64,000 nt of DNA from an uncultured Candidatus Saccharibacteria bacterium. Lineage in GTDB: Bacteria; Patescibacteriota; Dojkabacteria; SC72; WJKH01. The notes below the pieces were generated by a model. That model searched no databases, was not told where the DNA came from, and was given only the letters and a program-made list of their open reading frames with translations. The stretch spans positions 62,171-126,170 of the forward strand of contig CAZRRH010000002.1 in assembly GCA_964602665.1 (NCBI GenBank). Direction: 5' to 3'. Each line of letters opens with the position of its first letter. The stretch's first letter is position 1. Both the position numbers and the translations under genes were made by a program. Positions 3,421 to 52,049 of the stretch are shown here, piece after piece.

Positions 3421-3533
3421 TGCCAAAGGAGGGACTTGAACCCTCACCCCTCCGTTTAACAGGCAATTATTACCTACTAAACGGAGGGACTGCGTTCTGA
3501 ACACAGCGTGTCTGCCAATTCCACCACTTTGGC
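3421..3533 (-). tRNA. tRNA-Leu(CAG) with an unusually long variable arm (about 44 nt)
   Basis: Manual fold of the minus strand gives acceptor GCCAAAG/CTTTGGC with discriminator A. The D-arm is identical to the tRNA-Leu(TAA) at 6143. The anticodon stem is CTGTG/CGCAG with loop TTCAGAA, so the anticodon is CAG. The T-arm is GAGGG-TTCAAGT-CCCTC. The variable region contains a perfect 11-bp stem, CCCTCCGTTTA/TAAACGGAGGG. Confidence 0.65.
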
Positions 3534-3535
3534 TT

Positions 3536-5296
3536 TTAAATCTTATCCCAGTAAACAATATTATCAAATCTATCCGAGGGAACAGCCATATATTCTTGCT
3601 CTGGTATTATAACATTTTTTGATATAAAAAAGGAATAAGTAGGGTTGTATAAGAACAAAACAGGTGCATCAGACATAAAATATTTCTGAAAGAGCTGATA
3701 ATACTCTTTTCGCCCTTTTTCGCCATTAATTTTCGTTGTCATTCTAGCCATCTCAAGCAAAAGGTCGATCCTTTTTGATTTCTCTGTTGGGCCAGAGATA
3801 TTTAGATTAGGGTAGTCGCTTTTTAGTGAGTGCCACAAATTATATTGATCCGGATCAATTGTAGTTTCAATTTCAAACAATAACATCTGAAAATCTCTGT
3901 TTGGAAGGATTTCTCTTATTAATTGATCATATGTTTTTTTGCCACTATCAATGTCAAGGATAATGCCATTTTGCATAAGTTGTTGGCTTATATTTTGTGC
4001 AATCTTATTGTTTAATGGTGTATCAAGATATGTTAAAACAAAGCTTAATTGCTCTCCACTAGAGTTTTTATAGAAAGAGGTTTGTTCATCTTTTGTATAA
4101 CCGTATGATTTGAGATATGCATCGGCTTTTTCTGGTGAATATTCGTAAAATATTGAAGGATCATCAAGATAAGCCCAAGATTTTCTACTTATTGGGCCAT
4201 TTATTGGCATTGCCAAAACTCCCACATCGTTTATTAGCTCCTGTTTATCGATAAGATGGCTAATTGCTTGTCTTAAATATACACTTTTAAATTTATCTCG
4301 CGTGTTAAAGTAAATAAGACGATTTCTATTTGATAATTCTATGTCAATTTGTCTAAAATTTACACTGGCGTTGGCAAAATCAGCTTGATACAGATCAAGG
4401 TTTGAGACAATATCAACTTTATTATTAAAATATGCGGTTAGAAGATCTTCATAACTGCTGTATATCCTAAATTCGTAGAAATCTATGTTCGGTTTCACGA
4501 GATAATATTCAGATGGAACAAGTGTTATAGAGTAGCCATTGTTTTGAGCTATCCTATAAGGACCTGAGCCAACAGGTTTATTATTTAACCAAGAATACTC
4601 GAGGATATTGACATCTGATTGTTCAAAATAGTGCTGTGGCACAATATACTGCGCTATAACTTCGAAAATTGTGGCGTTTTGCTCTTTTAATGTGAATTTA
4701 ATAGTGTAATCATCAATAACATCTATTGTAATACCTTCCATAGCTGTTCCAATTGTATTGATACCGTTTTTATCTGATAAGTAAATAGCCGTGTCAAAGG
4801 TGTATTTTACATCAGAAGCTGTTAACTTCTCACCATCACTAAAAAAAATATCGTCTCTTAGGTAAAAAGTATAAACTTTATCTTGCTCTATTCTCCATCT
4901 TGTCGCGATTGATGGGCGAGGATTACCATTTTCATCAATTTTTATTAATTTTTGAAATACAAGTGCCTGTACATCTTTATCTGTTTGACTTCTTGTGATA
5001 AATATCGGATTAAGATTTGAAATGGTGCCCAAAGTTCCCTCTGATATGCTCTTTTTTTCAGCATAAATCTGTGGAGGATTTTCTAGGCTTGATTTGATAT
5101 TGCCATAAGACAAAAAGAATATTATTGTTAGTAGCGTATATATTATTATGCTACTTAAAGGGGTTAATTTAACAATGTACTTTGCTAGAATTGTAGGATA
5201 ATCCCATAAAAAATCTCTAAATGTGCGCTTTTTATCAGACAAGATCTCTTCATATACTTCTTCTGAGATCTCTACTCTGTTTTGCAGGTAGTTCAT
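3536..5296 (-). CDS. ABC transporter substrate-binding protein, family 5 (oligopeptide/nickel-binding type), membrane-anchored
   Basis: The 586-aa protein has an N-terminal TM anchor. An SBP_bac_5-like block is present (ATRWRIEQDKVYTFYLRDDIFFSDGEKLTASDVKYTFD). Confidence 0.55.
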   Translation of the reverse strand: MNYLQNRVEISEEVYEEILSDKKRTFRDFLWDYPTILAKYIVKLTPLSSIIIYTLLTIIFFLSYGNIKSSLENPPQIYAEKKSISEGTLGTISNLNPIFITRSQTDKDVQALVFQKLIKIDENGNPRPSIATRWRIEQDKVYTFYLRDDIFFSDGEKLTASDVKYTFDTAIYLSDKNGINTIGTAMEGITIDVIDDYTIKFTLKEQNATIFEVIAQYIVPQHYFEQSDVNILEYSWLNNKPVGSGPYRIAQNNGYSITLVPSEYYLVKPNIDFYEFRIYSSYEDLLTAYFNNKVDIVSNLDLYQADFANASVNFRQIDIELSNRNRLIYFNTRDKFKSVYLRQAISHLIDKQELINDVGVLAMPINGPISRKSWAYLDDPSIFYEYSPEKADAYLKSYGYTKDEQTSFYKNSSGEQLSFVLTYLDTPLNNKIAQNISQQLMQNGIILDIDSGKKTYDQLIREILPNRDFQMLLFEIETTIDPDQYNLWHSLKSDYPNLNISGPTEKSKRIDLLLEMARMTTKINGEKGRKEYYQLFQKYFMSDAPVLFLYNPTYSFFISKNVIIPEQEYMAVPSDRFDNIVYWDKI

Positions 5297-6142: not shown

Positions 6143-6226
6143 GCCGGGGTGGTGGAATTGGCAGACACGCAGGACTTAAAATCCTGTTCTAGAAATAGAG
6201 TGCGGGTTCGATCCCCGCCCTCGGCA
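6143..6226 (+). tRNA. tRNA-Leu(TAA)
   Basis: Cloverleaf: acceptor GCCGGGG/CCTCGGC, anticodon stem CAGGA/TCCTG with loop CTTAAAA, a 15-nt variable arm, T-arm GCGGG-TTCGATC-CCCGC. Confidence 0.85.
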
Positions 6227-13596: not shown

Positions 13597-15015
13597 ATGC
13601 AGAAAATAACAAAACAGAGCGAGAATTTTGCTAAGTGGTACCAAGATGTTGTGGCTTTTGCAGATCTTGCAGAGAGTTCTGAGGTCAGGGGCTGTGGTAT
13701 TATTAAACCTTATGGGCTCAAAATATGGGAATTGATAAAACAGAATCTTGCTAATAGAATTGAGGCTACTGGCGCACAAAATGTTTATTTCCCAATATTT
13801 ATACCTCTTGCTAATCTAGAGACAGAAAAAGAGCATGTAGAAGGATTTGCTCCTGAACTTGCTGTTGTAACACATGGAGGAGGGCAGGAGCTTACGGAGA
13901 AATTGACTGTCAGGCCAACAAGTGAAACAGGAATGTATAAAGCTTATGCTAAGTGGATTTCTAGCTATCGTGATCTTCCTTTAAGGCTAAATCAGTGGAA
14001 TAATGTTGTTAGGTGGGAGAAAAGGCCAAGGGCCTTTCTTAGATGGAGTGAATTTTTATGGCAGGAGGGACATACTGTTTTTGAGACGAAAGAAGAAGCG
14101 ATTGATGAAATGTGGCAAATGCTTGGAATATATGAGCAAGTTTACAAAGATTTGGCAATTCCTGTATTTAAAGGTAAAAAATCAGAGAAAGAAAAATTCG
14201 CAGGGGCTGATATAACAACTACAGTCGAGGTAATGGCTAAAGACGGGAAAGCAATACAAGGTGCAACAAGTCATCATCTCGGGCAGAATTTCTCAAAAGT
14301 TTTTGACATCAAATTTGCCGGAAAAGATGGTAAAGAGCATTTTCCATATCAAAACAGTTGGGGATTTACATGGAGGTCTGTTGGAGCTGTGATAATGGCT
14401 CATGGCGACGATTTTGGTCTAAAGTTACCCCCTAATGTCGCACCAATTCAGGTTGTCATAGTCCCTGTTATCAATAATGAAAAAATCGCTGTTTTGGATT
14501 CTGCTAAAAAGCTTGTAAAAGAATTAACAGATCTTGGATTAAGAGTAAAATTAGATGATCGAGAAGATCAAACAATTGGATACAAGTTTAATGAATGGGA
14601 GTTAAAAGGAGTTCCATTACGCATTACAATTGGTTCAAATGAGCTTAAAAATGGCGAATTTGAGCTATTTAGACGCGACAAGATGAGTAAAGAGTTTGCA
14701 AAAGCTGATTCTATTGGAGATTACATTGTAAAAAAGCTCATTAAGATTCAAGAAGATATGTATAAGGAAGCCAAGGAATTTGCCGATTCTCATGTTTATA
14801 CTATTAACAACTTAGAAGAAATAGATGAAAGAAAAGGATTCTTCCGTGCTAGCTGGTGTGAAAGTAAGGACTCTGAAAATTTACTCAAGGAGAAATATAA
14901 AATGGTGTCTCGAGTATTGCCTGTTGAGTGGGAAAAGCTACCTCCAACAAATAAAAAATGTTTTATCACTGGCCAAGAAGCAAAACACGACTGGCTTTTT
15001 GCAAAAAGTTACTAA
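13597..15015 (+). CDS. proS: prolyl-tRNA synthetase, archaeal/eukaryotic type (class II)
   Basis: The N-terminus WYQDVVAFADLAESSEVRGCGIIKPYGLKIWE is typical of archaeal-type ProRS. Class II motifs are present. The C-terminal Zn-binding domain ends in the conserved terminal Tyr (..FAKSY). Confidence 0.85.
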   Translation: MQKITKQSENFAKWYQDVVAFADLAESSEVRGCGIIKPYGLKIWELIKQNLANRIEATGAQNVYFPIFIPLANLETEKEHVEGFAPELAVVTHGGGQELTEKLTVRPTSETGMYKAYAKWISSYRDLPLRLNQWNNVVRWEKRPRAFLRWSEFLWQEGHTVFETKEEAIDEMWQMLGIYEQVYKDLAIPVFKGKKSEKEKFAGADITTTVEVMAKDGKAIQGATSHHLGQNFSKVFDIKFAGKDGKEHFPYQNSWGFTWRSVGAVIMAHGDDFGLKLPPNVAPIQVVIVPVINNEKIAVLDSAKKLVKELTDLGLRVKLDDREDQTIGYKFNEWELKGVPLRITIGSNELKNGEFELFRRDKMSKEFAKADSIGDYIVKKLIKIQEDMYKEAKEFADSHVYTINNLEEIDERKGFFRASWCESKDSENLLKEKYKMVSRVLPVEWEKLPPTNKKCFITGQEAKHDWLFAKSY

Positions 15016-45389: not shown

Positions 45390-47654
45390 ATGAAAAGATC
45401 TCTTTATATTATATATACGGTTTTTTTTATAATATTTTTTATCTTGCCATTGTTTTATCTTTTTTGGAAAAATAAGGGCTCTTCTATTCTTGGGCTTGAT
45501 TTGATAAATTATTATAATCCTGAAAAGAATCTCAAAGAAATTTTTTATATGTGGATTGAGAACGGCGGGAATGGATTTGGGTTTTATTTACCTATAAGAA
45601 TATTTGAAATTTTGAATGTCTCGATAAGCGTTTTTTTAAAGAAGTTGGGGGTTTCATTTAATGCTTGGTATAAAATATATTATTTTTTATCATTGATAAT
45701 TGGATATATTGGAATTTTTAAGCTTCTTAGTATGTTTTATAGAACAAAGATCATGTCTATTAAATTATTACTCGTTTCATATATATATATATTAAATCCA
45801 TTTACTTTAATAATAATTTATAACCCCGTTCCTTACTTTATAAATTTTATGGCTTTAACTCCATGGATTGCCTTTTTTTATATTCGAATTATTCGTGATC
45901 CTAACAGTAAAAGCTTATTATTGTTTTTAGCACTTAGTATTTTCTTAAATGTGGCATTTGCAAATTTAGCCTTCTTGGCTACATTAGTAATTCTCTTATT
46001 GATAATTAGCGTATTAGAAATAAAGAATATTTATAAAAATAGGAAAATACTTACTATTTATTTAATTATAATTTTTCTATTCAACTCATATTGGACTTTG
46101 AACTTAGGTCATTTTTATATTTTTAATAGAACAGACTTATTTGAAAGTGAGATAAACATTATTAAAACGGTCTTTGATATTGAGTCGATAAGTAAGTATG
46201 CTAAACTATCTAATATTTATCGTGGAATCGGAGGTTGGGATTTTTTTAATTCTCCTTTTGGTAAGCCATCGATAAGCTTCTCCTCGTTTTATAAGCAAGT
46301 TGTGCCAAGTATTTTGTTGTTTTTAAATCTGGTGCCTTTTCTAATGATTATTATTGACAAGAAGCATCAAGGTAGAAAAAGCATAATCATGGGTTCGTAC
46401 TTGCTAATAATATTTATGATATCTTATGGATTAGATAGTCTATGGTTTAAATCTGGAATTGTTAAGTCTGGTTTATATATGTTTAGAGATACTTTTAGTA
46501 AATTTGGAATGCTAATTCCATTTTTAATGACTATTTCTTGGTGTGAAACGATTAAGAGTAGCGGAAAAACAGCAATTTTTTTTCTTAGCCTTGCCATGCT
46601 TATAAATTCATATCCTCATTTAACAGGACAATTTATTAATAACGACTATTACTCTAATTATCCAAATGAATATAAGATTATTGGCAAAATAATCGATGAA
46701 GATTTTTCGTCAAATAGAGCTCTAAAGGTTCCAATCCCGACTTTTATTGCCATAGGAGAGAAAAATGATACATTGGCATGGGATTATTGGGGACCAGCTT
46801 TTTTATATGAGTTCACTGAAAAAAGGACGATAGAGATTCCTTCAAGAGCTGTTAATCGTTACTCAGATAAATACATGGAGAATTTCGTTGAAAATATAAA
46901 TGAAGAATATTTTTGTGAAAACTTAGATGAGATAAACATAAAACATATTCTTTTCAATAATAATTATTATGACTATTTATCTCCGAATGATAATGAAAAG
47001 ATTAAAGATAAATATTTTAAGATAGTAAATTCTTGTCAAAAGCTGGAACTTGTTTATGAAAGTAATGGTTATTACCTTTTCATAAACAAGGATGATTTAA
47101 GAGCAATTATTGATGGGAAAAACTTGTCTTTCCATAAAAATAATCCTACAAAATATAGTTTAAAAGTAGATAAAATAAAAGATAAGTTAAAGATAAACTT
47201 TTATGATTCATTTGATTATAATTGGCAATTGTATTTAAAAAGTAATAAAGAGTTTGCATCTGAAATGTTTTTAAATGCAGAAAAAAAACATATTGGCAAT
47301 TCAATAGAATATATTTCTAAAGATAAATTTGCTTTTAAGCTTACTGATCTCTCATACCTTTGGCGTAAGCCAATATTTGAAGATACGCATGAACTAGTAT
47401 ATGACTATGCAAACGGGTGGACAATAGATCCTGAGTACATAAAAGCAAACTATCCACCAGAATATTACCACGAGAACCCAGATGGCTCAATAGACATACA
47501 GTTGACCCTGTACTTTAAACCCCAGTCATACTTTTATCTTGGCATAATAATCTCCGTCACGACATTTACAGGATGTATAATATACCTAATAATAGACACA
47601 ATTAAAACTAAACGGCGCAAAAAAGATACAAATGAACCTCAAAACAAAAAGTAA
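45390..47654 (+). CDS. YfhO-like GT-C fold membrane glycosyltransferase (N-terminal polytopic domain, C-terminal extracytoplasmic domain, terminal TM)
   Basis: 754 aa with about 12 N-terminal TM helices, a roughly 300-aa soluble C-terminal domain and a final TM helix. It has the same architecture and C-terminal motif (GWxIDP...LTLYFxPQ) as its neighbour at 47632. Confidence 0.45.
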   Translation: MKRSLYIIYTVFFIIFFILPLFYLFWKNKGSSILGLDLINYYNPEKNLKEIFYMWIENGGNGFGFYLPIRIFEILNVSISVFLKKLGVSFNAWYKIYYFLSLIIGYIGIFKLLSMFYRTKIMSIKLLLVSYIYILNPFTLIIIYNPVPYFINFMALTPWIAFFYIRIIRDPNSKSLLLFLALSIFLNVAFANLAFLATLVILLLIISVLEIKNIYKNRKILTIYLIIIFLFNSYWTLNLGHFYIFNRTDLFESEINIIKTVFDIESISKYAKLSNIYRGIGGWDFFNSPFGKPSISFSSFYKQVVPSILLFLNLVPFLMIIIDKKHQGRKSIIMGSYLLIIFMISYGLDSLWFKSGIVKSGLYMFRDTFSKFGMLIPFLMTISWCETIKSSGKTAIFFLSLAMLINSYPHLTGQFINNDYYSNYPNEYKIIGKIIDEDFSSNRALKVPIPTFIAIGEKNDTLAWDYWGPAFLYEFTEKRTIEIPSRAVNRYSDKYMENFVENINEEYFCENLDEINIKHILFNNNYYDYLSPNDNEKIKDKYFKIVNSCQKLELVYESNGYYLFINKDDLRAIIDGKNLSFHKNNPTKYSLKVDKIKDKLKINFYDSFDYNWQLYLKSNKEFASEMFLNAEKKHIGNSIEYISKDKFAFKLTDLSYLWRKPIFEDTHELVYDYANGWTIDPEYIKANYPPEYYHENPDGSIDIQLTLYFKPQSYFYLGIIISVTTFTGCIIYLIIDTIKTKRRKKDTNEPQNKK

Positions 47655-49902
47655 AAAAACATATACCACAATAATTCTTATCCTACTAATCATCCTCTCC
47701 ATCCTCAACCTTCTCCCACTTAACCACATATATTCTCAATATGACATCGCACAGCAAATTGTTCCACGCCAGATCTTAGAGCAAATATACCTGTGGTCAC
47801 AAAGAGATCTAGGTGCAATGGCAACATCTTACTCCTCACTCCAATACTATCTTCCTCTCACAATCATCCCTACCACGCTCCACACAGCATACTATTACCT
47901 CATATTCCTCATCCCAACATACCTTGGCATAACATACTACCTATCCCAAAATAAAACGCAAAAATTAAAAAACAAAACTTACCTGCTCTCTCTAGTCTAT
48001 ACCATCTCCTTCTTCCCAGTATACTCATTCTTCTATCAGGGAGGACATTTCCCATTTCATAACCTATACTCACTATTTCCACCAATATTCATCCTATACT
48101 ACTTATACATAAGCAAAACAGAAAAAGAGGAGGCAAAAAGCTATCAATTTAAAATTCAAAACTTAAAATTTAAAATTGATAATAATTTATTAATCCTCCT
48201 TGCCATTCTTTTTCTAACTAACATAGTCAACTCCAATATCCCGTATTTTTTCTCGCTTAACCTAGTTTTAATACTAATTGCAGTAGTTAATTACATCATC
48301 CTAAAATCACGCAAAGCGGTTCGTACAATACCTTACTTGTTCAAAATAGCTAAATTTTACATACTATATTTCTTAATTACCGTTTGGAGCACAGTGCCAC
48401 AAATAATACAGCATTTAAACACATATTCATCGTTTATGAGACAGCAAGAGCACTTTCCCATAGACCAATGGCTGTTTTGGCAGTCAATGAATTTCACAGA
48501 GAGCTTGACGATGTTTTGGGAGACTCGCAGATACCTGGATCAGATACCTCTAACTGTATATGGCGCACTGGCCATTACATTTCTAGCCTTTGTCGTTTTA
48601 ATCGCAACAAAAAAGAGAACAGCGATACTTACGATACTTTGGGCAACATATATATTTGTCATATTTTTAGCCAATAAAGGGGCATACTGGCTTCCGCAGC
48701 GTTGGACACTTGCCATTTTCAAGCTTCCATTTTTGGCACCAATAAGATCATATGATAAGACGCTAATTTTTATGCCATTTCTTTTGTTTGCGATAATATC
48801 TTACTATATCCTGACTGATTACGAGAAAAACAAGAGATTAAAGCAAGTCATGCTTGCAGTACTATGCATCTCACAGATAATCGCCTCATATCCACTATGG
48901 AGTGGCCAGTTAGTCACAAAGTACTCACAACAGCATGCTAAAGGTGAGGATTACACAACTGCAGAGTATTCGCCCGTTGTACAAATCCCACAAGATTATT
49001 ATGATGTAGCACAAATATTAAATGCCAAGTATGATAATGGTAGAAATCAATTCCGTGTTATGCGCTTGCCATATTCTGTAGTAAACTCGGCGGGTTGGGC
49101 TAACTACCCTAAGTGGAAAGTCAACAGCGCTGATCCTACAATACAGCTATTTGATATGCCTTCCGTTCAGCCACAGTCCTTTCCTGATGAAGCTTTTGGT
49201 TTGTGGAATTGGGGATTGGAGTGGAATGAGGATGATAAATCGCAGAGCATGTGGCTTCTTAATTTTATGACATTTACTAATAGTCGATATATTATTTATC
49301 ATAAAGATGTTAAGCCGGAGTTTATTGCTGATACGATTGACAAGATAAACTACTACAAAGAGCAGGGGTTGATAACGCAGATTTATAGTGGTGAGTATAT
49401 TGACGCTTATGAATTATCTCGGATTTACATTGGCGATCATTTTTATATCGCTGATAAAATCGAGTATTTTAGTGGCGACTACGATAATTATGCAAGCCGG
49501 CTTTACAATTTGAATGCTAACTCGGTTTTTATACATAGCGATAGAATTACACAAGAACAGTTAGTTTCGCTATATAATATTAAAAAATCAGATGCACAAA
49601 TAAGCTATGAGTATATTAGCCCGATAAAATATAAAATAACCGTAAAAAATGCGACAGAGCCGTTCGTTTTGGTTATGCGAGAGGGTTATCACAAAGGCTG
49701 GAGGCTTACTGGTGCAAGCTGTGATCATATATTTGCAAATGGTTTTGCTAATGGATGGATAATTGATCCTGGTGATAGCGATGAGCTTGACTTAACTCTC
49801 TATTTTATACCGCAAACATTATACTGGGTTACTTTTGCTATATCCTCTTTGACTTTTTTATGGGTTTTATATATGATAATCATGATTAAAAAAAAGAAAT
49901 GA
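47632..49902 (+). CDS. YfhO-like GT-C fold membrane glycosyltransferase, tandem paralog
   Basis: 756 aa with the same topology as 45390..47654. Its 5' third has unusual G-depleted codons, and an in-frame repeat-family copy lies at 48156-48187. Confidence 0.45.
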   Translation: MNLKTKSKKTYTTIILILLIILSILNLLPLNHIYSQYDIAQQIVPRQILEQIYLWSQRDLGAMATSYSSLQYYLPLTIIPTTLHTAYYYLIFLIPTYLGITYYLSQNKTQKLKNKTYLLSLVYTISFFPVYSFFYQGGHFPFHNLYSLFPPIFILYYLYISKTEKEEAKSYQFKIQNLKFKIDNNLLILLAILFLTNIVNSNIPYFFSLNLVLILIAVVNYIILKSRKAVRTIPYLFKIAKFYILYFLITVWSTVPQIIQHLNTYSSFMRQQEHFPIDQWLFWQSMNFTESLTMFWETRRYLDQIPLTVYGALAITFLAFVVLIATKKRTAILTILWATYIFVIFLANKGAYWLPQRWTLAIFKLPFLAPIRSYDKTLIFMPFLLFAIISYYILTDYEKNKRLKQVMLAVLCISQIIASYPLWSGQLVTKYSQQHAKGEDYTTAEYSPVVQIPQDYYDVAQILNAKYDNGRNQFRVMRLPYSVVNSAGWANYPKWKVNSADPTIQLFDMPSVQPQSFPDEAFGLWNWGLEWNEDDKSQSMWLLNFMTFTNSRYIIYHKDVKPEFIADTIDKINYYKEQGLITQIYSGEYIDAYELSRIYIGDHFYIADKIEYFSGDYDNYASRLYNLNANSVFIHSDRITQEQLVSLYNIKKSDAQISYEYISPIKYKITVKNATEPFVLVMREGYHKGWRLTGASCDHIFANGFANGWIIDPGDSDELDLTLYFIPQTLYWVTFAISSLTFLWVLYMIIMIKKKK
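48156..48187. repeat. in-frame copy of the A/T-rich repeat family inside the 47632 CDS (AATTTAAAATTCAAAACTTAAAATTTAAAATTG)
   Basis: It encodes YQFKIQNLKFKIDNNL within the ORF. The motif matches the arrays at 35590-35680. Confidence 0.5.
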
Positions 49903-52049
49903 AAAAAAAGATACTACTAACAGTCCTTGTTACAAGCGCTATATCAGCACTCCTTCTAGCTTTGTCATCGTATATGAGCAAAGACTTGCAGGTCAAGCCA
50001 ATTGATTCGCTCGATCAGCTGTATTTATCTAAGTATATTTCTCAAGGTAGTGCAGGACTAAGTGTGTCGACTACAGATCAAAACGCAGATAAACTTGTCC
50101 CATACACCAAGGAGTCTTATGTATCAGCACAAACCGCACAAAACACTCCTTATTCTAATTATAAATATGAGGGCGCGTATTTACCAAAAGAATCGTATTA
50201 TAAAAGGTTAGATTTCTCAGAGTATTATGGCCTTAAAACGGTTATATCCCTTTGTAAAGACGAGTATTTTTACACATCAGAGGTTGGAGAGGAATTTATT
50301 ACTCACAATCAGTCAAGAGATCATGAATATCTTCTTAACCGCAAATTAAGCGATATTGCAAAATGCAATGTCTCGGTACTTAAGTTTGATGATACAAATC
50401 TACTTCAAAATCTCCAAACCAGTAAAGATTTTCCTGCTGTTTTAAGTGATCACAGACTGGCACTCTCAAGCGAGAGAAGTTACACTATTGATGAGAATGG
50501 GCAAGCAGGTATATTGATAGAAGTTAAGGAAAAACCAGCATATTATGCTCAAAGATATCTTGCTACGATAAAACCATTTGACGATTATCTTCTTGAGTTT
50601 AAGTATCAAGCGCATGACACCCTAAATCTTCGTTATGGAGTTAGATTATTTACACAAAAGTATCTTGATAGACAAACCGCAATGGAGCAAGAAGATTATG
50701 ATCCTATTGCCTGGAGTGATATTGACAATGAGTACACTGAATACTATTTTGACATTGCAAATGAGCAGTCGCATTTATTACAGCAGGTCGTTTCGACAAA
50801 CTTAGAAGATGTCATCGGAGTAGAGGTGATATATTATGCTGATTCGTGTACAAATGCCAGATATTCTTTTGGGATGCCTTCTCTCTACTCTTTGGTTTCA
50901 CAAGATAGTATTGATGAATATAAACAGGAATACTCTTTGTTGGCTGAACTTGTAAAAGTAGATTTACCTGCTAAATTGCCTGTATCCGAATTGGAATCTC
51001 CGTTTTATATTCTCAATAAGTCTGTGCAGTCAGAAGATGGCATATATACTACAGATGTCTACATAGCTAGTAATGACTATGCTCTGTATTTACTTGAGTT
51101 TGATGGCAAAGCATATACTATTACTGGTGAATTTGGCGAAATGGTGGTTGAAGATTATGATTGTGGTAAGGTTGTTATTGGCGATATAGCACTTGGCAAG
51201 ATAATGAATTTATCATTAAAGAGCGATAAGCCGGTTGATAGCATATCTTTGGAAAAGGCTACCTTTTACGATCCTTCATATTCAGAAACGCTTTTCAAAC
51301 TTGATAAAACTCAGTTTACAAGTGGCGATTATAAGTTAGTTCTATTAGAGAAACCTTATTCTCTCAAATATTATATAGCGGATTCTGATTATTATCATTA
51401 TATGACAAATGGTAATCAGAACTTATTTCTAATAAATAGTGATATAACTATATACCCCATAGGGTATAAAACAGCCGAAAGTATTAGAATATTGGCCTTT
51501 TTGATTATACCCATAGGGGTATTTATTATGCTTGTTTATCTTAACCGGTCTAAAATCGTTGGAATCTATAAAAAGATTAATAAATCTTATATCTATATAA
51601 ACACGCTTTTTTCAAGGAAGATTAGTATTCCACTGCTTAAATTCGTTTTTGACTCAAAGGAGATAAAATATAAGCATATTTTTGATACCAAAAGCAAATT
51701 TTGGGGTGAAATTGACATGATAATTGAGAAGATTGTTACTGATGTTATTAACAAGCCACTTGGGCTGATTTTTATCGTTGCAGGATGTATTCCTTTGATA
51801 TTTGCCCTATCTATACCTCTTAAATCTATTGCTATTCTGATCGTTTTCGCAATTATGTTGATTTGGCTTCTTTACGGATGGGATAGTAGGGTTTTGGGTC
51901 TTGTAGCGTTGATTTTTTTGTGTGCAGTGCCTGTTTTGCTGATTCTTAAAAAAGATGGCTATGCTGAAGGTTTTGCCATTATGGTCTACTTTTTCCTTGT
52001 TGCTAATGTCGCCGTGCAGGTTAAAGAAGGCCTAGAGCATAAGCAGTAG
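49899..52049 (+). CDS. large membrane protein (N-terminal anchor, about 500-aa extracytoplasmic domain, C-terminal polytopic domain), unknown function
   Basis: 716 aa with N-terminal TM and signal and about six C-terminal TM helices. Composition resembles the higher-GC patch. Confidence 0.4.
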   Translation: MKKKILLTVLVTSAISALLLALSSYMSKDLQVKPIDSLDQLYLSKYISQGSAGLSVSTTDQNADKLVPYTKESYVSAQTAQNTPYSNYKYEGAYLPKESYYKRLDFSEYYGLKTVISLCKDEYFYTSEVGEEFITHNQSRDHEYLLNRKLSDIAKCNVSVLKFDDTNLLQNLQTSKDFPAVLSDHRLALSSERSYTIDENGQAGILIEVKEKPAYYAQRYLATIKPFDDYLLEFKYQAHDTLNLRYGVRLFTQKYLDRQTAMEQEDYDPIAWSDIDNEYTEYYFDIANEQSHLLQQVVSTNLEDVIGVEVIYYADSCTNARYSFGMPSLYSLVSQDSIDEYKQEYSLLAELVKVDLPAKLPVSELESPFYILNKSVQSEDGIYTTDVYIASNDYALYLLEFDGKAYTITGEFGEMVVEDYDCGKVVIGDIALGKIMNLSLKSDKPVDSISLEKATFYDPSYSETLFKLDKTQFTSGDYKLVLLEKPYSLKYYIADSDYYHYMTNGNQNLFLINSDITIYPIGYKTAESIRILAFLIIPIGVFIMLVYLNRSKIVGIYKKINKSYIYINTLFSRKISIPLLKFVFDSKEIKYKHIFDTKSKFWGEIDMIIEKIVTDVINKPLGLIFIVAGCIPLIFALSIPLKSIAILIVFAIMLIWLLYGWDSRVLGLVALIFLCAVPVLLILKKDGYAEGFAIMVYFFLVANVAVQVKEGLEHKQ

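Follow-up and report, generated by a model that had tools for sequence, protein, structure and literature searches.

The window examined here, i.e., the whole 64,000-nucleotide (64-kb) stretch of contig CAZRRH010000002.1 that was analysed, carries a tRNA-Leu(CAG) gene on its minus strand at 3421-3533, in which the variable region extends to 44 nt. By sequence, structure and synteny, this gene is a genuine, orthologous tRNA-Leu(CAG) of a Candidatus Dojkabacteria genome, and its extra bases lie wholly within the variable hairpin. It directly follows a gene for a solute-binding protein (SBP), the named homologues of which all belong to Candidatus Dojkabacteria in the Candidate Phyla Radiation (CPR; Patescibacteria). 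The window has a G+C content of 29-37% and contains chromosomal genes including those for SecG, cytidylate kinase, FtsW, a ClpC/B-like protein, prolyl-tRNA synthetase (ProRS) and FTHFS. From the 5' end, the tRNA gene and its parts are as follows.

3421 to 3533, minus strand: whole tRNA-Leu(CAG) gene of 113 nt, identified by its sequence, covariance models and syntenic orthologues; CCA is not encoded
3527 to 3533, minus strand: 5' strand of the acceptor stem, GCCAAAG, with 7 of 7 pairs formed with 3422-3428
3508 to 3524, minus strand: D-arm GTG-GAATTGGCAGA-CAC, a 3-bp stem and an 11-nt loop with G18G19, of the class II tRNA-Leu type
3490 to 3506, minus strand: anticodon arm CTGTG-TTCAGAA-CGCAG, with the anticodon CAG at 3497-3499, U33 and A37
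3446 to 3489, minus strand: variable region of 44 nt, composed by its predicted fold of an unpaired T, a 19-bp hairpin and an unpaired GT; the flanks are as in normal-arm orthologues
3470 to 3488, minus strand: 5' strand of the variable-arm helix, CCCTCCGTTTAGTAGGTAA, with a perfect, G+C-rich lower part of 11 bp that is followed by G.U, U.G and the conserved UAGGUAA
3467 to 3469, minus strand: apical loop UAA of the variable arm, the sole position of the tRNA that differs (UUA) in strain L140
3448 to 3466, minus strand: 3' strand of the variable-arm helix, TTGCCTGTTAAACGGAGGG, paired with CCCTCCGTTTAGTAGGTAA
3429 to 3445, minus strand: T-arm GAGGG-TTCAAGT-CCCTC, a 5-bp stem with a GTTCRA-type T-loop
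3421 to 3428, minus strand: 3' strand of the acceptor stem, CTTTGGC, and the discriminator base A73 (3421), read from the sequence

From 3533 down to 3421, the gene thus reads GCCAAAG TG GTG GAATTGGCAGA CAC G CTGTG TTCAGAA CGCAG T CCCTCCGTTTAGTAGGTAA TAA TTGCCTGTTAAACGGAGGG GT GAGGG TTCAAGT CCCTC CTTTGGC A, and pairing is perfect in all four of the acceptor (7 bp), D (3 bp), anticodon (5 bp) and T (5 bp) stems. The D-arm shows no variation across 12 aligned tRNA-Leu genes of Dojkabacteria and is identical over its 17 nt to the D-arm of the tRNA-Leu(TAA) that ARAGORN calls at 6143-6226; the identity of these two D-arms had been pointed out in the original prediction. In these respects, the candidate is like a canonical bacterial class II tRNA-Leu: namely, it has 7/5 acceptor and T stems, A73, a 3-bp D-stem with a GGAAUUGGCAGAC-type D-loop, an anticodon arm with CAG, a regular T-arm and an orthologous locus. 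Its variable region also takes the expected position and is a hairpin with a single unpaired base at its 5' flank and two at its 3' flank. The departure from the class lies in length, with 44 nt and a 19-bp stem against a usual arm of about 13-21 nt. The sequence, covariance models and comparative analysis therefore uphold what had been proposed at the outset, a minus-strand tRNA-Leu(CAG) of about 113 nt that is canonical in all else but has a variable arm of about 44 nt, some three times the usual; normal arms measure 13-15 nt at the syntenic CAG loci and 17 nt in the tRNA-Leu(GAG) of L139 (related loci are designated by L numbers).

The original prediction had described the arm as a perfect 11-bp helix with a 19-nt loop. 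While the 11-bp helix is real, the loop is not, because pairing continues upward to give a gapless helix of 19 bp (16 Watson-Crick and three G.U pairs) closed by a loop of 3 nt. The stem is four to five times as long as usual, and the normal hairpin of 4-5 bp is replaced with the same unpaired flanks retained. The 113-nt RNA folds with a predicted energy of -55.6 kcal/mol (z = -7.1 versus shuffles), and the 11-mer strands of the helix have no matches in the 64-kb window besides the two arms themselves.

ARAGORN did not call the tRNA-Leu(CAG) at 3421-3533 when run on the window. Upon trimming the arm in silico, tRNA-Leu(cag) was called once the arm was 10 bp or shorter and the variable region 26 nt or shorter; therefore, the miss is a matter of the length limit only. 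ARAGORN misses every long-arm gene found in this study. Also, the Rfam tRNA model RF00005 at its gathering score left the window copy unreported in both the 64-kb search and an 8-kb search. The L140 counterpart of this gene, on the opposite strand and with a single loop base changed, scored 49.4 bits over the full model (threshold, 29), with 41 extra bases falling in the variable region. Four other long-arm genes were reported at 44-52.5 bits, and L002 was missed. The detection of long-arm tRNAs by Rfam is hence erratic, presumably from its speed-filter heuristics. We also used a covariance model, R1, built from 12 normal-arm tRNA-Leu genes of Dojkabacteria, with which the window was searched with filters off. 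R1 scored the window copy at 65.4 bits (E ~2e-15); its top hit was the tRNA-Leu(TAA) with 99.2 bits, and the Phe, Cys and Gly tRNAs of the window reached 32-34 bits. The other long-arm genes scored 44-62 bits. In the R1 alignment, four basal pairs of the arm match the normal variable stem, and an insert of 33 nt takes the place of the 4-nt loop. The RF00005 and R1 alignments therefore back the identification as a tRNA and assign the extra bases to the variable arm, not to the anticodon loop; the original prediction had named covariance models as the check that could have moved these bases elsewhere or rejected the tRNA, and the call was kept. On this basis, an intron in the anticodon loop was rejected, the insert falling within the variable hairpin under either covariance model.

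A permissive Rfam search of the candidate returned only the model of selenocysteine tRNA (tRNA-Sec), RF01852, at 22.3 bits versus a gathering score of 47. tRNA-Sec and allo-tRNAs have in common with the candidate a long, stable variable arm on an L-shaped tRNA, and the tRNA-Sec model tolerates a long arm, hence the weak match. As a tRNA-Sec, nonetheless, the candidate was rejected, since it has 7/5 stems (not 8/5, 9/4, 8/4 or 9/3), a 3-bp instead of a 6-bp D-stem, the anticodon CAG instead of UCA, A73 and a score of 22.3 bits. The variable arm of tRNA-Sec is about half as long as that of the candidate.

A non-canonical intron had been another of the original suggestions. A true intron, either of the archaeal bulge-helix-bulge (BHB) type or of group I, would be excised and the ends ligated to a tRNA of ~85 nt. 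In Archaea, non-canonical tRNA introns can indeed occur in the variable region, and BHB introns and split tRNAs resemble the present case in placing extra sequence in a tRNA gene outside the anticodon loop. CPR genomes with insertions in rRNA genes were also reportedly described by Brown et al. in 2015. The candidate, however, has a bacterial host and a single continuous helix coaxial with the variable stem; this helix is uninterrupted, without the 3-nt bulges flanking a 4-bp helix, and the BHB test is failed. For a group I intron, the extra sequence of ~30 nt is too short (the ribozyme has 200 nt or more) and wrongly placed, and searches up to E<=10 matched no intron family. Furthermore, removal of the hairpin would leave a variable region of 3 nt on a class II D-arm. 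We hence regard an intron as extremely improbable.

The comparison with related genomes rests on the neighbouring SBP gene as the synteny anchor.

3536 to 5296, minus strand: SBP_bac_5 solute-binding protein gene, the stop codon of which is 2 nt ahead of the tRNA

The SBP gene adjoins tRNA-Leu(CAG) across Dojkabacteria (L001, L002, L004, L005, L009 and L131-L137), and the neighbourhood of SecG, SBP, tRNA and a convergent ORF is common to the window and to the 10 loci where ARAGORN calls the tRNA (L001, L004, L009 and L131-L137). All of these 10 have normal arms of 13-15 nt, and the normal orthologues total 82-89 nt as compared with 113 nt in the window. In L001, the SBP of which is 69% identical to that of the window, the arm is normal (T-TTCC-TAAC-GGAA-GT), and the tRNA body differs at two positions outside the arm. 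L002, with an SBP 66% identical to that of the window, has an arm of 47 nt (T-CCCGTCCGTCCA-A-TAGGTAA-ATAC-TTACCTA-C-TGGACGGACGGG-GT). The arms of L002 and the window have TCCG and UAGGUAA in common and otherwise show compensatory differences, for example UUUA/UAAA versus UCCA/UGGA. The anticodon arm is unchanged in both L001 and L002. Another syntenic locus, L005 (SBP ~38-40% identical), has a tRNA-Leu(CAG) with a variable region of 82 nt, which is the longest seen, and a total of 150 nt with an otherwise normal body.

L005, 3713 to 3862, minus strand: tRNA-Leu(CAG) with a basal stem of 8 bp, an A.C opposition and a long, imperfect, A+U-rich stem; 44 bits with RF00005 and missed by ARAGORN

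Position 37 (in the loop UUCAGAA, window 3495-3501) is A in the tRNA-Leu(CAG) of this clade, with normal and long arms alike, and is G in L133 and L134. Bacterial tRNA-Leu reading CUN codons usually has m1G37.

In a neighbour-joining tree of the SBP proteins, the topology is ((window, L001), L002), with normal-arm lineages outside. More than one change of the arm state is therefore implied, either through loss of the long arm in L001 or through transfer of the arm between genes. The orientation of tRNA-Leu(CAG) relative to the SBP gene also flips between lineages, with L131, L132 and L136/L137 on one side and the window, L001, L002 and L133-L135 on the other. The candidate was also considered as a tRNA-like 3' element of the SBP mRNA, which was rejected because the orientation relative to SBP flips in L131, L132 and L136.

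In L140, an independent assembly in the ENA with a 99%-identical SBP, the tRNA (L140:3264-3376) differs solely by UAA→UUA in the apical loop. An assembly artefact is therefore excluded, and the one base that changed is unpaired. A decaying pseudogene, or such an artefact, might have been suspected from the absence of a call by ARAGORN and at the Rfam gathering score, and from the normal arm in several relatives. The independent assembly, the perfect stems, a body nearly identical to those of orthologues and the compensatory changes in the helix all speak against it. This is, furthermore, the sole tRNA-Leu(CAG) at a conserved locus, and CUG codons are in use, accounting for 90 codons or 4.7% of Leu codons in the ORFs of the window. 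We consequently find this explanation very improbable. The original prediction had anticipated that related genomes could show a normal arm and this copy be a pseudogene; some relatives do have the normal arm, but the conserved locus, the near-invariant body and the compensatory helix changes contradict the pseudogene.

Long arms were also found in other leucine isoacceptors. Metagenomes were scanned for a tRNA-Leu-like D-loop, an over-long spacer and a T-loop (the pattern TGGCAGACRC with a gap of 39-69 nt), which gives no measure of prevalence and misses arms like that of L005. Most matches were false positives, in which the T-arm of a normal tRNA-Leu itself lies inside the gap, and were removed by cloverleaf checks. 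After this filtering, arms of the same design were present in at least three more genes among the matches listed, namely those of Leu(CAA), Leu(GAG) and Leu(UAG).

L011, 8150 to 8263, minus strand: tRNA-Leu(CAA) with an arm of 45 nt, identical in L119
L016, 6203 to 6317, plus strand: tRNA-Leu(GAG) with an arm of 46 nt, identical in L138
L087: tRNA-Leu(UAG) with an arm of 48 nt

The same arm type, 44-48 nt long and once 82 nt, is hence found on CPR-type contigs in leucine tRNA genes with the anticodons CAG, GAG, CAA and UAG. A single 158-kb contig, NPID01000825.1, carries both L011 and L016, the related arm sequences of which differ by compensatory changes. TsaD homologues place the L016 contig in Patescibacteria, the level to which L011/L016 are resolved, and L087 is grouped as CPR-type solely by the likeness of its tRNA body to those of L005 and L016. 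In L139, the TsaD of which is 68% identical to that of L016, the orthologous tRNA-Leu(GAG) has a near-identical body with a normal arm of 17 nt; the contrast between L016 and L139 repeats that between the window and L001. In L159, also a TsaD relative, no tRNA was found downstream. At L159:1729-1753, the end of this Logan contig is Illumina adapter sequence (AGATCGGAAGAGCGTCGTGTAGGGA). No genuine long-arm tRNA-Leu was found in viral contigs. We also noticed that L001, with its normal-arm CAG gene, and L011/L016 come from one metagenome and have similar GC (0.40 and 0.41) and Leu codon usage; they may belong to one organism mixing normal and long arms.

G+C-rich and apparently non-CPR contigs yielded further candidates for tRNA-Leu(UAA/UAG), with variable regions of 34-38 nt and all missed by ARAGORN.

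L050, 3564 to 3670: candidate within a 2-kb array of 12 tRNA genes
L059, 3651 to 3756, minus strand: candidate
L023, 1810 to 1913, minus strand: candidate
L121, L040, L046 and L017: candidates with one acceptor- or anticodon-stem mismatch each

Most of these candidates have an intact cloverleaf, and over-long arms may thus not be confined to CPR. In L012, L029, L074, L093, L100, L106, L037, L042, L092 and L125, a normal tRNA-Leu is directly adjoined by a second T-arm and acceptor 3' end, or internal duplications are present. They have the appearance of tRNA 3' ends duplicated at integration sites, or else of assembly artefacts.

We then compared six arms with each other, namely those of the window, L002, L005, L011, L016 and L087. 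All six are preceded by one unpaired T and followed by GT (TT in L087), as normal arms are, and all zip gaplessly with C-G as each of the first three pairs. The basal 8 pairs are Watson-Crick in 48 of 48 instances over the six genes, with 3-4 pair types at four of these positions. The eighth pair is followed by A.C in L016, L011 and L005 and by U.U in L087; A.C comes after the 12th pair in L002, and G.U after the 11th in the window. An A.C or G.U pair lies directly 5' of UAGG in the window, L002, L016 and L011. The motif (A/G)-UAGG-UAA is common to the window, L002 and L016 and is partly present in L011, and UAGG is absent from L087 and L005. Between the window and L002, UAGGUAA is kept despite an SBP identity of only 66%. 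The distal halves are A+U-rich with G.U pairs, the loops are small and unconserved (UAA, UUA, AUAC, GCUUA and others), and the arm length is 44-48 nt in five of the six genes. The homology of these arms is based on the CCC...GGG base, the GC(U/C)A core and the UAGG(U/A)AA motif.

Pairs were counted on 19-nt strands, the tips of which were swapped for a GAAA placeholder to hold the register. In total, 107 of 114 helix cells are paired; this 93.9% compares with 69% in shuffles, none of 500 reaching the observed value, and with 34-54% in slid registers. Among 20 pairs, 12 are changed on both sides, and the covariation score is 0.72 versus 0.22 in shuffles. As far as can be judged from these sequences, compensatory substitutions keep the helix intact.

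A small palindromic mobile element inserted in the arm, similar to a miniature inverted-repeat transposable element (MITE) or a repetitive extragenic palindrome (REP), would be selfish DNA and not a selected RNA feature. Such an element would be in line with the patchy occurrence among close relatives, with the related arms in different isoacceptor genes including two on one contig (L011 and L016), and with the replacement of the whole stem instead of an extension of the old one. Nonetheless, exact, 1-mismatch and blastn-short searches with the six arm sequences detected no copies elsewhere in the window or among ~1 Mb of fetched loci, and the miniature element of the original prediction, which should be dispersed, finds no support there. 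All arms start and end at the same tRNA positions with the flanks kept, and neither terminal repeats nor target duplications are present. All arms, furthermore, came from tRNA-Leu genes, although the pattern scanned for was specific to Leu and could not detect them elsewhere. A mobile element is, in our view, quite improbable.

We consider it likely, with a probability of roughly 80%, that the candidate is a functional tRNA-Leu gene with a selected expansion of the variable arm. The arm would then be an "expansion segment" on a tRNA. Transcription would start from its own promoter-like site or proceed jointly with the upstream gene.

3540 to 3567, minus strand: promoter-like TTGATA-16-TAAGAT, located in the 3' end of the upstream ORF and terminating 6 nt short of the tRNA 5' end; a consensus match only

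TGTAAAAT-type -10 elements are found upstream of other long-arm genes and of the normal orthologue L139. The transcript would be matured by RNase P and the CCA-adding enzyme and charged by a bacterial-type leucyl-tRNA synthetase (LeuRS), and the tRNA would serve CUG codons. LeuRS of E. coli and T. thermophilus reads A73 and the tertiary core of the D- and T-loops without contact to the variable arm, and EF-Tu binds the acceptor/T helix. Charging, delivery and leucine identity therefore need not suffer from the expansion. LeuRS is also reported to disregard the anticodon (PMC11028032). Engineered tRNAs with hairpin aptamers in the variable arm (V-arm) still translate in E. coli, whereas bulkier V-Spinach inserts work poorly (PMC7590224). 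Such V-arm fusions (MS2, boxB and further hairpin aptamers on allo-tRNAs, and V-Spinach tRNAs) are like the candidate in their over-long V-arm hairpin, and several are active in translation (PMC7590224). They are man-made, however, and their activity falls as the arm grows, whereas the long arm of the candidate is a natural and conserved feature of leucine tRNAs that read sense codons.

Several points weigh against a functional, selected expansion. The Rfam tRNA model leaves the window copy unreported. A second, normal tRNA-Leu(CAG) could lie in the genome outside the 64-kb window, and a tRNA-Leu(UAG) covering CUG might make the gene dispensable. Steric conflict with the ribosome may arise from a rigid 19-bp helix (~50 Å), and even more so from the arm of L005 with its 82 nt. 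Also, unrelated hairpins would give high covariation as well, and the homology of the arms rests on short motifs. With regard to the ribosome, Dojkabacteria reportedly have no 23S helix H78 near the L1 stalk (bioRxiv 10.1101/2024.11.29.625318), and this loss may be relevant, as a lead, to the room for a bulky tRNA.

As to the fate of the arm, the helix could be retained on the mature tRNA as a rod projecting from the tRNA body, for which we see a chance just short of even. Retention is favoured because five arms are similar in length and the distal UAGGUAA is conserved across deep divergence. Alternatively, the arm might resemble an intervening sequence (IVS): a double-strand RNase, either RNase III or another, would cut the distal arm without religation and leave a nicked tRNA. 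Two stems, the acceptor stem of 7 bp and a G+C-rich basal arm stem of 8-12 bp, would keep the pieces joined. Clipping would be compatible with a functional gene. We know of no tRNA that is processed by such clipping. In 23S rRNA, nonetheless, IVSs provide a parallel, as extra stems that replace a hairpin, occur patchily in close relatives and are excised by RNase III with no detected effect on the ribosome (PMC8708148). Like these IVSs and the CPR rRNA insertions, the arm is a well-paired stem in the place of a short hairpin in an otherwise unchanged host RNA, and it is likewise patchy, being long in the window and L002 versus normal in L001 of one clade, and long in L016 versus normal in L139. 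It differs from the 23S rRNA IVSs in that the host is a tRNA and the insert is ~30 nt instead of 100-200 nt.

The anatomy of the arms offers further points for clipping. All arms reach at least ~19 bp (about two helical turns), with no upper bound as judged from L005, and no lengths between 13-17 nt and at least 44 nt occur among syntenic orthologues. Above the basal 8 pairs, which are always Watson-Crick and G+C-rich, come a non-Watson-Crick position and a distal stem rich in A+U. The free length of L005 suits a discarded part better than a retained one. The distal UAGGUAA is, however, conserved in sequence and not only in pairing, which is unexpected for a discarded segment. Also, neither an RNase III gene nor its signature motif was found in the 64-kb window, which is a weak point for a sample of this size. 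On balance, clipping is possible but rather unlikely.

The conservation of sequence beyond pairing, i.e., (A/G)-UAGG-UAA with the odd pair before UAGG, and the similar length of 44-48 nt in five of six genes might instead point to a binding site for a partner specific to the lineage, be it a modified LeuRS, a modification enzyme or another RNA-binding protein, or to a tRNA-like RNA that is regulatory or non-translational. The apical loops are unconserved, nonetheless, and UAGG is absent from L087 and L005; the gene takes the place of an ordinary tRNA-Leu(CAG) at an orthologous locus, and a normal arm is sufficient in close relatives. The analysis turned up no candidate gene for a partner, and the 64-kb window contains no LeuRS gene. 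A partner or a regulatory role of this kind hence appears improbable. The original prediction had likewise proposed a synthetase identity or anti-determinant role and a tRNA-derived regulatory RNA, both of which are hypothetical. Taking the arm more broadly as a processed or recognised module, i.e., either a clipped tRNA working in two pieces or a docking helix for a CPR protein around the wobble pair and UAGG, we hold this as a tentative proposal that falls short of being probable.

The Sprinzl numbering provides e11-e17 and e21-e27, i.e., 7 pairs in the variable stem. The e-numbering has been described with no upper limit stated (PMC7954030), and tRNA-Sec and allo-tRNAs have been described as the largest natural tRNA structures (PMC7590224, PMC5389517). 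In the literature on tRNAs of CPR, Patescibacteria and Dojkabacteria or on long variable arms, we found no report of natural variable arms of more than 30 nt, but a prior description is possible.

Two further features of the window were noticed apart from the tRNA.

13597 to 15015, plus strand: ProRS with a C-terminal ProRS-C_1 domain
45390 to 52049, plus strand: three consecutive, slightly overlapping ORFs of 754, 756 and 716 aa without any Pfam match

We take the ProRS-C_1 domain to be a mark of the archaeal/eukaryote-like ProRS architecture. Archaeal-type synthetases have been reported in CPR (PMC5370408), to which the ProRS of the window adds.

In conclusion, we have identified a class II tRNA-Leu that is outside the known size range and recurs in a CPR clade. 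Because the long-arm genes are missed by ARAGORN and picked up erratically by Rfam, the affected genomes will appear to be without tRNA-Leu isoacceptors, which can distort completeness estimates and inferences of codon reassignment in CPR bacteria. The long variable-arm hairpins that have been sought by engineering are here already tested by evolution and are hence natural scaffolds for synthetic biology. If the arm is a processed or recognised module, either version would represent a mode of tRNA biogenesis or recognition undescribed in bacteria; an arm that is clipped or specifically bound would mean a new step of tRNA biogenesis in this poorly understood, uncultivated radiation.

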